Assembly (NCBI GenBank): GCA_041697335.1
Contig: JBGUGD010000033.1
Coordinates: 1-41,377, forward strand
Reading direction: 5' to 3'
Source of the DNA: Vampirovibrionaceae bacterium NZW_1234
GTDB lineage: Bacteria; Cyanobacteriota; Vampirovibrionia; Vampirovibrionales; JAGQHJ01
DNA length: 41,377 bases
Shown piece after piece: positions 37,309 to 41,377 of the stretch (its first letter is position 1; each line of letters opens with the position of its first letter). Made by a program: the position numbers and the translations under genes. The notes beneath the pieces were generated by a model that saw nothing but the letters and a program-made list of their open reading frames with translations, was not told the origin of the DNA and did no database searches.

Positions 37309-40300
37309 ATGACACCCATCACTCCCACTCGGCTTGGCCTTGGATTCATTGAACGCGCTCGGCTTCTTGCCGGACGCCCTTCAGAAACAGTATCCCCTCA
37401 GAATTCCTCAATCGTGATTTCCGAACCCCTGGCGCGAGACGAGGTTCGCTTCGGTGCTCGGAAGAAATCCAAAAACGAGAAGCGCACACAACGCAAGAAA
37501 GATAAGGCCCGACGTCAGATTCAGCGTGCTCGCTCTGAGGCACCGGAACCGAGGGGAACGGTTGAAAGCACGCTCCGGCCACCCCTGTTTAACGCCACTT
37601 CTCCCTTAGGAGAGATTCCTAAAACCGTGCGGCCTGAGATTCAACAGGCCATGGGGCGGATCATCCATGCCTACCCCCCGGAGAGTCTGGTGAATGCGGA
37701 TAAGATTCAGGATGAATTGGCAATCCCCAGAGCACATGCGGAAGAAGCCTTGAAAGCCTTGTATGATGCCGGTCGCAGTGTGCCGGTTACCCATCCTACA
37801 GACAACCCCGAAACCCCTTGGCGTATTTTAGATCCCAAATCATATCTCGAAGACCTTAACCCTCTGGTGACGGCTGCCTTGCTCAGTCAACGTGTTAAGA
37901 AGCAACCACTGACCCTGCTCAGTGCTGTCGAACCTTTCGTCTATATTGCCTTTTTTAAATATGGACTTCGGCAAGGCTCTCCGCTTCCCTCGGCTCAGTT
38001 TTTTAACGGATTGATTCCACCTCAGTTTCGGGCTCAGATTGCCGATGCCGATAAACCCCTGGATGCGCTGATTCAATTGGGACGTCCCGTGGCAGCGCTG
38101 GAGTCTGGGATTTATCGCTTTCAAGGTGCCGAACCCGTCGTGCCGGAACAAAATTTTATGATGTCTATTTTGGAAACCATGTCCCCTGGGGAAGCCTTCT
38201 CTTCCGATAAGATGGTCAATCTCTTCAAAACAAAACTTCTGACTCCCGACTCCAAAGTGCCGTACGCTTTTTTAAAGGCCCTTCTGCAGTACTCGCTGCC
38301 CTACAGTCTCGAAGGCCAAATCCGGACCTTCGATCGCTACGGGATCCAGAATCTGGATACCCGAGCCAATTTGTCTTTGCCGTTGCAATGGGGAGCCCAA
38401 ACTCTTGTCGCCCTTGGGTTTTTGGATCCCCAAACCCAGCGTTTCACCCAACGGGTCAGTGAATGCCAGTTTGGGCTGTCGCTGCTGCAAGACGTGCAAA
38501 AAATACCCAACCGGGTTGATGGGGCCTGTCTGTTTTTCAGAAACGACCCGGTCAGCAAGAACGTTATTGTCTCCACCAGTCACGCGGCATCCGCCGGAGA
38601 TAACTCGCGTTCGATGGCCTATTTTGAACATCTTCGTGGTGAACGCCCGATTTATGTGCCGGAAGAGATGGCGATGATCTATCAAAAGGGCGGTTACATG
38701 GGGCAGCCTGCCGCAGAACAGGCCTTGAAGGAATTGGCGCAACTGTATCCGGCCTTAAAACCCTATCCTGGTATTCCGCCTCGCCCCCTAGTGTTAAGTG
38801 TCGACGAGGCGAGCAATTTGAAATCCTTGATTGAGGCACAGCACCGGGATGGAAAACTGAGAGCCATTGGCATGGTGGATAATCCCCCGGCACAGCATTC
38901 CTCGGTATCCCCCTTGGCATCGCCCGAAGCTGCCCGCTTGGCGGTGCCACCCCTTGTTAAAGCCTTGTGCAGTCAAATTCTGGAGCGGTATCCTGTCGAA
39001 ACGTTGATCAATACTTCAAAAATTACTAAAGAACTGGGCCATACCAACCCTCAAACCATCCAGGCGTCCCTGATGCATTTGTATCACACGGGCTATCTGT
39101 TGCCTTTGATGGATGAGCGTGGACCCTGGATGGTGCTGAATTCCAAATACCTGCCCCCGGCTCATGCCGCATTGGTTGGGCGTCAGGTGGCCAGCAGTTC
39201 TTCGCCTGCTTATGAAAAGTTTAATGCCTATGCCACCTATTTTAAGTCCCTGCGAATTCCCGGCCAAGAGCGATATATTATGCCCAGCATGGCCTATTTT
39301 GAAGCCGTAGCTTCCAAGACCTCTGATAAACCGCTATTGCGGGAACTGATTCTCAAAGCCTCGACTGTGGATACCACCGGATTTCATCGGGCTAATCTCA
39401 ATGGCACCCTGGCAGAAGTTCAGGAAAGTGATACGAAATGGCAAAAATTTCTTCTGACGCTGACACCGGGAGAAAGTCTGTTTGCGGAAGACACGGCACA
39501 AAAGTTCACGGCATATCTGAATGCCAACATGAAAGGCGCGACCATAGAGTCTGGGGTTGTCAAGCGGATTCTCTCAGCATTAACAGAGAAGGATCTGTTC
39601 ACGGTGCTGACTGAGCAGAAACCCTTTGCCAAGGTACGCCCGCAGTTGTCCCCCCAAAACCAGGAAGCCTTGTTGCTGCGGTTGAACGCGTATATTTCCA
39701 ATATGTTGATTAAAGGTTATCTGAACGAGCAGTTTGTGCTGACGGACAAACTGCGGGAGTTTCAGCAGGGCCAGGCCTTGGTTGAGCGATATAATGCGAC
39801 GCCCAACAAGCAGCTGACCATGTCCCTGATACCGCCTAAGGGACAGGAATTGCACTGGAGCATTTCGTTCTCATGGACCCTGCCACCTCGGGTTCCCGAT
39901 GAACAGGAAGCCCGCCTGGATATTCCGGCCAATCGTCTCGTGCCCCATTACGTGCTTCCTTTCCTCCCCGCACATCAACAGTTTACGCTGCGTCAGGATA
40001 CGGAGGCCGCTCTTGATGCCGCCAGTGGTGCTGACGGCTATCCCAAGCTGAAGGAAGCTTACTATAAAGACTTGCCTCCACAACCGATGGCTCTGGATAC
40101 GGCCGAGGTGCTGGACTTCCTTAAACATGCCAATAAACTTAAAGCCAAGGGCATCCGGATATTATTGCCCCAATCGCTGATTGAAGGTCCGAAGGCTGGT
40201 GGTACTCCCACCAACCCTCTTCAGGTTCCTGTGGGCGCTGTTGATGCCATGGTGGGTGAAAAGCCGACCACCACAAACCCGGAAGTCACCAAAACCATTC

Positions 40301-41377
40301 AGCATAAAGATCTCTGGGTTCCCGCCGATTCTACGAATCTGAGAGCATGTACGGCGGCCATTCGCAAGCAACTGCAGGTGGCTGGTGTTACCGCTGAGAC
40401 GTCCTATGACAACCTGCGTCCGGATACGGCCCAATTGCTGGAACAATTGCTGACAGCCATTAATGTCGCCGATCAATTCACCTTGCTGGATACCCCGGTG
40501 CAGTTTAAACAGCCGTTGCTCAATTTCCAGAAGCTGGGCTATTCCTGGATGGACTACAATATCCGAAACGGTCGCGGGTGCCTTCTGGCCGATGGCATGG
40601 GCTTGGGCAAGACGGTGCAAACTCTGGCCTATCTGCAAAAGCGCTGGAACGAGGGTGAAACCAAGCCGGTGCTGATTGCGTGTCCCAAAAAAGTCATGGC
40701 CGAATGGCGGGATCACATCCGGGATTTTACGAACCTGCCGTTGGATCAGGTGTGTGACCTGCCTCGGTATATGACCCAGGTCACTCAGGAGATCAAACGT
40801 GAGGCCAAGTCACGCCGAGAAGAATTAAGCGAGTCTCAGTTTAACGAGCGTTTGAATCAGCGGGCTGCGGCTCACCTGCGTCAGCAGCGCGTGATCTTGA
40901 CCACGTATGAAACCATGGAAAGCCGCAAAGATCTTCTCAAGCAGCTTTCTCTGGCCGGGATGGTGCTGGATGAAGTCCACAAAATCAATAATCCGGTCAC
41001 TGGTTGGGCCCAGGCCGCCTTTGAAATTGCCCATGAGGACCGGGATAATGCAGACCTTGCCAAACCCGGCTTCCGGATTGGTCTCTCCGGCACGCCCATT
41101 CAGAATCGACTGGGCGATCTGTGGTCGGTCATGCACTACGTCCAGCCGGGCATTCTGGGGACCGTTACCGAGTTTATGCGCACCCATGTAGAGCCCATTT
41201 CCCGCCTTCAGAACACCCCCTCCGGAGCGCCGAATCAGTTGCCACAACCTGGAGCGGTAACACCGGCTTCGCCGAATCCGCTCCAGCAAGCCCTGGGGAA
41301 TCTGGTTCAGCGCATTCAGCCCTTTGTGCTTCACCGGACCGAGCGGGTCGGTTCCATTGTGCAGGAGCTTCAGGCCA
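37309..41377 (+). CDS. Very large SNF2-family (SF2) ATPase, 3'-truncated by the window edge; absent from the ORF track
   Basis: Manual translation from ATG 37309 finds no stop for 1356 codons. Q motif LLNFQKLGYSWM, Walker A LLADGMGLGKT (40582-40614), LIACP, LTTYE, Walker B VLDEVH (DEVH at 40969-40980), motif III LSGTPIQNRLGDLWS, PFVLHRT. Confidence 0.92.
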   Translation, partial: MTPITPTRLGLGFIERARLLAGRPSETVSPQNSSIVISEPLARDEVRFGARKKSKNEKRTQRKKDKARRQIQRARSEAPEPRGTVESTLRPPLFNATSPLGEIPKTVRPEIQQAMGRIIHAYPPESLVNADKIQDELAIPRAHAEEALKALYDAGRSVPVTHPTDNPETPWRILDPKSYLEDLNPLVTAALLSQRVKKQPLTLLSAVEPFVYIAFFKYGLRQGSPLPSAQFFNGLIPPQFRAQIADADKPLDALIQLGRPVAALESGIYRFQGAEPVVPEQNFMMSILETMSPGEAFSSDKMVNLFKTKLLTPDSKVPYAFLKALLQYSLPYSLEGQIRTFDRYGIQNLDTRANLSLPLQWGAQTLVALGFLDPQTQRFTQRVSECQFGLSLLQDVQKIPNRVDGACLFFRNDPVSKNVIVSTSHAASAGDNSRSMAYFEHLRGERPIYVPEEMAMIYQKGGYMGQPAAEQALKELAQLYPALKPYPGIPPRPLVLSVDEASNLKSLIEAQHRDGKLRAIGMVDNPPAQHSSVSPLASPEAARLAVPPLVKALCSQILERYPVETLINTSKITKELGHTNPQTIQASLMHLYHTGYLLPLMDERGPWMVLNSKYLPPAHAALVGRQVASSSSPAYEKFNAYATYFKSLRIPGQERYIMPSMAYFEAVASKTSDKPLLRELILKASTVDTTGFHRANLNGTLAEVQESDTKWQKFLLTLTPGESLFAEDTAQKFTAYLNANMKGATIESGVVKRILSALTEKDLFTVLTEQKPFAKVRPQLSPQNQEALLLRLNAYISNMLIKGYLNEQFVLTDKLREFQQGQALVERYNATPNKQLTMSLIPPKGQELHWSISFSWTLPPRVPDEQEARLDIPANRLVPHYVLPFLPAHQQFTLRQDTEAALDAASGADGYPKLKEAYYKDLPPQPMALDTAEVLDFLKHANKLKAKGIRILLPQSLIEGPKAGGTPTNPLQVPVGAVDAMVGEKPTTTNPEVTKTIQHKDLWVPADSTNLRACTAAIRKQLQVAGVTAETSYDNLRPDTAQLLEQLLTAINVADQFTLLDTPVQFKQPLLNFQKLGYSWMDYNIRNGRGCLLADGMGLGKTVQTLAYLQKRWNEGETKPVLIACPKKVMAEWRDHIRDFTNLPLDQVCDLPRYMTQVTQEIKREAKSRREELSESQFNERLNQRAAAHLRQQRVILTTYETMESRKDLLKQLSLAGMVLDEVHKINNPVTGWAQAAFEIAHEDRDNADLAKPGFRIGLSGTPIQNRLGDLWSVMHYVQPGILGTVTEFMRTHVEPISRLQNTPSGAPNQLPQPGAVTPASPNPLQQALGNLVQRIQPFVLHRTERVGSIVQELQA

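Follow-up and report, generated by a model that had tools for sequence, protein, structure and literature searches.

A second, fast-evolving SNF2 ATPase with an N-terminal RFG tag in a Vampirovibrionia bacterium: a candidate exported, nucleus-targeted effector

The window analyzed here, a stretch of 41,377 nucleotides that constitutes the entire contig C6 of a genome of Vampirovibrionaceae bacterium NZW_1234, a non-photosynthetic relative of cyanobacteria (3.70 Mb, completeness 94.75%), ends within a divergent gene of the SNF2 ATPase family, the product of which we call the SNF2 protein. We read it, at a probability of roughly 0.4, as a second, fast-evolving SNF2 ATPase that is exported by means of an N-terminal tag into a prey or host cell and acts there as an effector that enters the nucleus. 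Speaking for this reading are a separate housekeeping copy in the same genome, a tag that behaves as an add-on, a second export gene set, a basic patch, terminal basic clusters in relatives, and the presence of the ATPase motifs. Export itself is probable given that the tag is common to about one-tenth of the proteins and is accompanied by an extremely basic stretch; the more elaborate proposal, in which the protein is an injected saboteur of chromatin or transcription and one of about 300 RFG-tagged proteins of an undescribed flagellum-derived type III system conserved in most Vampirovibrionia, including non-flagellated gut members, is tentative. The gene is real and unusual; we regard the support for export as good but circumstantial and the support for a nuclear target as moderate.

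The SNF2 gene and its two pieces

The gene and its parts are as follows, with positions counted from the first letter of the window unless another contig is named (aa, amino acids):

37309..41377, + strand: 5' part of the divergent SNF2-family gene, 1356 aa, cut by the contig end
37309..37455, + strand: N-terminal leader ending in the motif D-E-V-R-F-G (37438-37455), position-specific scoring matrix (PSSM) score 13.3
37459..37515, + strand: basic patch RKKSKNEKRTQRKKDKARR, aa 51-69, 12 K/R in 19 residues
37579..38883, + strand: repeat 1 (aa 91-525), with a winged-helix-like start (~37627-37839), a helical region, and a degenerate copy of the beta region
38887..40203, + strand: repeat 2 (aa 527-965), with a predicted winged helix at aa 548-611 (38950-39141)
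40039..40371, + strand: DUF3670-like stretch ahead of the ATPase (Pfam PF12419, profile-profile comparison)
40522..41343, + strand: SNF2 ATPase N-lobe with Q motif, Walker A, Walker B DEVH, and motif III
G000:C13:2-916: candidate 3' part, 304 aa, motifs IV-VI, open at the start of contig C13

Read from the ATG at 37309, the open reading frame (ORF) meets no stop before the end of the window, and its codon use is coding-like in all 70-codon blocks, including aa 1-140. The alternative start GTG 37414 retains the RFG motif; GTG 37627 would lose it and is disfavored. The initial annotation had allowed that the true start might lie downstream of the leader, against which stand a leader that is in frame and coding-like and a tag that recurs genome-wide. 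Its observation that ATPase motifs begin only after ~1070 aa was borne out: the Q motif starts at aa 1072 (40522) and is followed by Walker A (aa 1093; 40585-40614), Walker B DEVH (aa 1220; 40966-40980), and motif III (aa 1259; 41083-41097); Pfam SNF2-rel_dom (PF00176) matched aa 1074-1345 at E 5e-35. The annotation had also placed RKKSKNEKRTQRKKDKARR at 37459-37515 at once after RDEVRFG (aa 43-49): the positions are right, and one Ala lies between the two elements.

Three SNF2-like ORFs were found in the genome, namely the ORF on C6, a complete 1,082-codon SWIM-type gene on contig C23, and a helicase-C half on C13 that is the only orphan C-half found. The C6 piece stops just past the N-lobe and the C13 piece starts just ahead of the C-lobe, and comparison with a metagenomic relative (P0003, below) suggests that only a few residues are missing between them, for a combined length of ~1,660 aa. 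We infer that the two are halves of one gene; neither an end overlap of at least 8 bases nor a public contig bridging the C6 end was found, and the retrieval of the full gene proposed in the initial annotation yielded a candidate C-terminal half and no bridge across the junction. Both arginines of motif VI are present in the C13 half. Of 101 ordinary relatives, 94 have an Asp in motif VI that is missing here and in the three closest relatives. A nuclease match was not found in the C13 half. The predicted activity of the SNF2 protein is DNA-stimulated ATP hydrolysis with translocation along double-stranded DNA.

The leader and basic patch are matched letter for letter by public contigs from four runs, which represent at most two samples and possibly include the source. 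Runs holding DNA of the SNF2 gene are labeled as hot-spring or microbial-mat metagenomes, and no RNA runs are among those listed.

Relationship to other SNF2 proteins

The best matches among 1.84 billion representatives were DUF3670-type SNF2s. The SNF2 protein would have arisen from a bacterial ATPase of this type, an ancestry based on the domain match because the tree does not resolve the sister group of its clade. A eukaryotic origin of the ATPase was rejected, as its best matches are of bacterial/archaeal type. Three metagenomic singletons from Logan (P0003, P0021, and P0023) stood out as the closest relatives and formed a clade with the SNF2 protein in FastTree (Shimodaira-Hasegawa support 98; 91 of 190 rows) and in IQ-TREE (100/97; 44 rows). 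When P0003 was dropped as a check on long-branch attraction, the SNF2 protein, P0021, and P0023 still grouped together, with a Shimodaira-Hasegawa-like approximate likelihood ratio test value of 99. N-terminal profile similarity between the two pairs of the clade was 96.2% (E 2e-9), and P0003 matched repeat 2 at E 3e-17. A metagenome scan yielded 80 loci, every one of which matched in the ATPase only; the 35 of these that were placed on the tree all fell outside the clade. The longest contig for both P0021 and P0023 has 8,976 bases, so the two may be a tandem pair, and P0021 starts at its winged helix and may have been called short.

The housekeeping SNF2 of the genome is the C23 gene (C23:135333-138578), which sits in a class-wide SWIM-SNF2 clade with short branches; its own branch is 0.077, versus 1.19 for the SNF2 protein. 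The two proteins are of one ATPase family, with 28% identity across 279 aa, and have no N-terminal region in common. We therefore rejected the identity with a conserved single-copy ortholog that the initial annotation had named as a possible refutation: the SNF2 protein lies in a separate clade, and the conserved place is filled by the C23 copy. The N-terminal region had no match in 60 relatives nor, with alignment A2, in 400 other genomes of the class. In the housekeeping-type SWIM-SNF2s of several relatives (L176-L179, L186), long N-terminal extensions or inserts of low complexity contain K/R-RGRPP motifs resembling AT-hooks.

Among the closest known systems are the bacterial and archaeal DUF3670-SNF2 helicases (PF12419 + PF00176 + PF00271; NCBIfam SCO1167/SCO6262, sll1366). 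They provide the best ATPase matches (33-45% over matched stretches), and 26 of 30 scanned matches carry DUF3670 at E 1e-5 or better; the best solved relative of the ATPase is PDB 1z63 (E 9e-29). The SNF2 protein differs from them in its tag, basic patch, duplicated ~430-aa module, motif VI without Asp, and long branch, and its whole-protein NCBIfam score (SCO1167/sll1366) is 115 + 49 bits against a cut-off of 1200.

The N-terminal duplication

The first ~1,000 aa consist of two tandem copies of one module, each of which starts with a predicted winged helix; the second ends in the DUF3670-like stretch. Residues 91-402 align with residues 527-834 at 25% identity (E 1e-9), and aa 107-177 match aa 546-613 at E 2e-7; alignment A2 alone stretches the duplication to ~430 aa, taking repeat 1 to aa 525. 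An AlphaFold2 model built on A2 (five sequences) had predicted local distance difference test (pLDDT) values of 81-86 at model residues 21-60 and 65-76 at residues 61-90, and is dependable solely for the winged helix that opens repeat 2. Its best structural matches were the winged helices of GntR, Vps25, RPA2, and Z-alpha, tied at Z 6.3-7.1, with the Z-alpha rows (Z 6.3-6.5) level with GntR and other winged helices; because the matches are tied, they indicate a common fold and no function. The winged helices are predicted to be DNA- or partner-binding modules. Foldseek with the model returned nothing at E 0.001, and a single-sequence AlphaFold2 prediction of aa 91-964 was unusable (pLDDT 36). 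Atlas look-ups gave values below 0.9 and offer leads at most.

The DUF3670-like stretch matched PF12419 at E 5.6e-6 with 26.5 bits, below the 27.6 cut-off, and profile-profile comparison gave a probability of 95.7% (E 9e-9). The first ~270 aa of the repeats (winged helix plus helices) had no detectable match in the DUF3670-SNF2 family. Word-limited homologue searches with the N-terminal 940 aa and, among longer proteins, with A2 returned nothing; the second of these missed even the three known relatives.

The RFG tag

That the leader motif and the basic patch are real features was upheld by the genome as a whole, in which RFG is enriched at N-termini and the patch ties for the most basic 20-mer. 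Counted over 2,784 ORFs, RFG appeared 137 times within residues 1-40, as opposed to 4-17 times per 20-residue bin over residues 60-300; among 2,633 proteins, the strict motif was N-terminal in 139, versus 15 of 2,360 control windows. A PSSM score of at least 10, our definition of a tagged protein, was reached by 297 of 2,633 proteins and 13 of 2,283 control windows, a comparison that is partly circular because the PSSM was trained on RFG N-termini.

The tag behaves as an extension added to existing proteins: among 62 pairs with a leaderless paralogue, it lies N-terminal of the aligned region in all but one. Tagged paralogues stood beside an untagged copy in 20 of 30 hand-picked cases (PurA, MDH, PRPP synthetase, GDH, FtsH, ClpB, ClpP, and others), with guanylate kinase, IMPase, and DeoC also among the tagged duplicates seen across the genome (e.g., L151-L170, L271-L310), and the two SNF2s show the same pattern; the other ten cases had no untagged copy, and some are false positives of the scan. 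Overall, tagged proteins did not have paralogues more often than untagged ones (97/297 vs 859/2,229). Other tagged enzymes include Lon, IDH, thiolase, amylomaltase, and NAD synthase.

We scanned 213 tagged candidates with Pfam (111 of 121 in 20 regions and 102 of the 168 remaining high scorers), and by hand count 131 had no Pfam family. The remainder were mostly proteases, AAA+ proteins, hydrolases, and metabolic enzymes, along with some false positives, and the tagged cargo includes Lon, ClpB, ClpP, FtsH, a release factor domain, and sigma-70 region 4 repeats. The last occur in a tagged 1,077-aa protein (L296:7549-10779, G000:C8), in which individually weak stretches add up to a strong sigma-70 region 4 score over the whole protein; these suggest repeats and bear on a bacterial or plastid target.

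We take the tag to be a probable export signal. Sec export was rejected, since the leader has no Sec-like hydrophobic core (hydrophobicity 1.13 against a threshold of 2.2) and Sec-like N-termini are rarer in tagged proteins (14/297) than in untagged ones (406/2,229). The tag was not found in the SNF2s of 20 relatives that were checked, where the top score was 7.9.

A candidate export machine

Alongside a complete flagellar set, the genome holds a second one at three loci:

G000:C32:8787-21070 (L025/L026), C8:66049-68566, and C29:178709-179809: second flagellum-derived type III export set, with FlhA, FliI, FliH, FliF, FlgB/C/F/G-like, FliE-like, a lytic transglycosylase, FliP/Q/R, and FlhB

FlhA, FliI, FliF, FliP, FliR, and FlhB are thus each present as two genes, and FliG matched only once; an unmatched 387-aa protein occupies the FliG place in the second set. 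The second FlhA scores below both the flagellar and the injectisome cut-offs and belongs to a long-branch Melainabacteria clade of its own among flagellar FlhAs, shared with Gastranaerophilales. It is 62-66% identical to Melainabacteria/Gastranaerophilales proteins, which places the organism in Vampirovibrionia, with Vampirovibrionales as its probable order. Second-type FlhA was present in all five flagellin-less genomes, as their only FlhA type.

The second set would be the machine that reads the tag. In an underpowered comparison across families, the tag was missing from the one without FlhA (1 of 127, control 2) and present in the bacterium's own (8 of 48, control 1). Early flagellar type III substrates carry a two-part export signal, an unstructured N-terminus and a short downstream motif, according to PMC8983047. 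The tagged N-termini are similar in having small hydrophobic residues at positions 2-5 (241/297 tagged vs 1,696/2,633 overall) and differ in that RFG often lies fewer than 30 residues from the start. Delivery by type IV secretion has been proposed for V. chlorellavorus in PMC4451040, where the term "type III" does not occur. A type IV route via VirB4 was rejected here, as no PF03135 match was found in the 94.75% complete genome.

The basic patch and the target compartment

The patch fits the consensus of a bipartite nuclear localization signal (NLS). Its 12 K/R within a 20-residue stretch share the top rank among the 2,633 proteins, and it is twice as basic as the next among the 139 strict-motif proteins. 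Two of the three closest relatives also carry terminal basic clusters: P0003, with a tag score of 11.0, ends in RRRKRKHKK, with 9 K/R among its final 12 residues, and P0023, with RKRK close to the N-terminus and RRKK at the C-terminus, has 5 K/R among its final 12; P0021 has neither a terminal basic cluster nor a tag. The 101 ordinary relatives never exceed 3 K/R in the final 12 residues. The positions of the clusters at different ends suggest independent gain, which is typical of NLSs. Bipartite-NLS matches anywhere in the protein occurred in 33 of 297 tagged and 149 of 2,229 untagged proteins.

Nucleomodulins are bacterial effectors active in host nuclei, and the SNF2 protein would resemble them in its proposed mode (exported, NLS-bearing, and acting on host DNA or chromatin). 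Since the ATPase is of the bacterial DUF3670/SSO1653 type, action on nucleosomes can be proposed only by analogy.

Discussion

Under our preferred reading, the tag would direct the unfolded SNF2 protein to the second type III set for delivery into a partner cell, where it would refold; the basic patch would mediate nuclear entry, the winged helices would bind DNA or a DNA-bound partner, and the motor would translocate on double-stranded DNA, displacing the proteins bound to it. Transcription in the target would be shut down or scrambled, and co-exported hydrolases and metabolic enzymes would digest it. The compartment would be the nucleus or, alternatively, a bacterial or organellar nucleoid; on present evidence we favor a eukaryotic target.

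Several observations weigh against this reading. All four proteins of the clade are on long branches, and P0023 and P0021 fall below the tag score. The tagged cargo consists mostly of orphans and bacterial-type enzymes; none of the 213 scanned tagged proteins has a eukaryote-type family of the SET, ankyrin, Ulp1, or kinase-like kinds, one having sigma-70 region 4 repeats, and in the 94.75% complete genome SET, ankyrin, and Ulp1 were all unmatched and protein kinases did not exceed the cut-off. A U-box search of the genome also returned no match, in a search that had no working control. Neither bipartite-NLS matches in the first 100 aa (8/297 tagged vs 51/2,229 untagged) nor, clearly, patches of at least 9 K/R in 20 (7/297 vs 37/2,229) are enriched in tagged proteins, and basic tails, of RGRP type, occur in the order's housekeeping SNF2s as well. 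Regarding the machine, where other groups with the second export set were sampled, enrichment of the tag did not reach significance, the tag is missing from ten rod/hook-type proteins of both systems, and it does not follow the F-x-x-x-hydrophobic gate motif pattern (53 of 297, against a background of 2,396/7,930, 30%). The exported, chromatin-acting effector put forward in the initial annotation is partly supported: a candidate export machine exists, and two of three relatives have terminal basic clusters that the 101 ordinary relatives lack, but eukaryote-mimicking families went unmatched and NLS matches in the first 100 aa are not enriched in tagged proteins.

The strongest alternative, which we consider unlikely, is that the SNF2 protein remains cytoplasmic and assists, as an additional DNA translocase, in repair, transcription, or nucleoid maintenance within the bacterium itself, with the tag as a processing, localization, or degradation label and the patch as a DNA-binding tail. 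Its closest ordinary relatives, the DUF3670-type SNF2s, are cytoplasmic; winged helices and basic tails bind DNA, and the RGRP-type tails of the order's housekeeping orthologues fit this role; many tagged proteins are ordinary cytoplasmic enzymes, a third of the hand-checked cases having no untagged copy; and the tag and the machine do not co-occur significantly in the other groups. However, a conserved housekeeping SNF2 is already present, the very long branch and the absence from 400 class genomes better suit a fast-evolving conflict gene, and on duplicated enzymes the tag takes the form of an added extension.

A second alternative, in our view quite improbable, keeps export and directs the protein into bacterial prey, such as mat cyanobacteria, or into an organelle, where it would strip RNA polymerase or nucleoid proteins from DNA and the patch would bind DNA rather than serve as an NLS. 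The bacterial type of the tagged cargo, from Lon to the sigma-70 region 4 repeats, the missing eukaryote-mimicking families (SET, ankyrin, Ulp1, over-cut-off kinase), and the hot-spring or microbial-mat labels of the runs all fit such a target. Against it stand the basic clusters at different ends of the relatives, as expected of independently gained NLSs, and the one cultured relative discussed in PMC4451040, which preys on a eukaryotic alga.

Membership in an anti-phage system as a ZorD- or DrmD-like helicase is very improbable, and Zorya membership was rejected: the ATPase matches the PADLOC ZorD and DpdE models at E down to 2e-43, but these matches are ATPase-only and far below NCBIfam cut-offs, the C13 half gave no match to a fused nuclease, ZorD-like rows form a separate clade, and no defense partner genes adjoin, as the three neighbors scanned with PADLOC gave no match and the window, with 24 other ORFs scanned with Pfam, holds polysaccharide genes and orphans.

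If our preferred reading is true, an ATP-driven DNA motor joins the known bacterial means of attacking host nuclei. The second export set would then give a testable explanation of protein delivery by Vampirovibrionia that does without the type IV system put forward for V. chlorellavorus, and it would explain why gut members keep the "partial" flagellar gene sets reported for Gastranaerophilales in PMC5877343. Should the protein instead act at home, it still marks a small, unnamed group of SNF2s whose domain layout is new, and a tag carried by about one-tenth of a proteome. Our literature search found no SNF2 nucleomodulin, with most subscription papers outside its reach, and no paper on the RFG tag or on a second type III set in the class, though supplements of genome papers, which lay outside the search, may list the set.

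Gene neighborhood

Other features of the window are the following:

35954..37132, + strand: upstream orphan with an RFG leader (score 12.2) and an HEXXH motif (36845-36859)
19503-35862: polysaccharide export/synthesis cluster (glycosyltransferases, Wzy-like, heparinase-like, Wza-/Wzc-like, UDP-sugar dehydrogenase)
16229-17686, - strand: outer-membrane efflux protein, apparently split into ORFs of 193 and 274 aa, both PF02321

The upstream orphan had no Pfam, NCBIfam, or PADLOC match, and its HEXXH motif with a later Glu would be compatible with a zinc protease. No Rfam matches were found within the window. The guanine-cytosine content of the polysaccharide cluster is below that of the SNF2 gene. 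Positions 1-7895 hold five ORFs of 277-983 aa with zero or one weak Pfam match, among which ORF 7062-7895 has a strong tag score (17.3). The two neighbors downstream of the C13 piece are both orphans: L021:922-2004 (- strand) has an EF-hand-like loop, seen by eye, and L021:2120-3715 (+ strand) is tagged.

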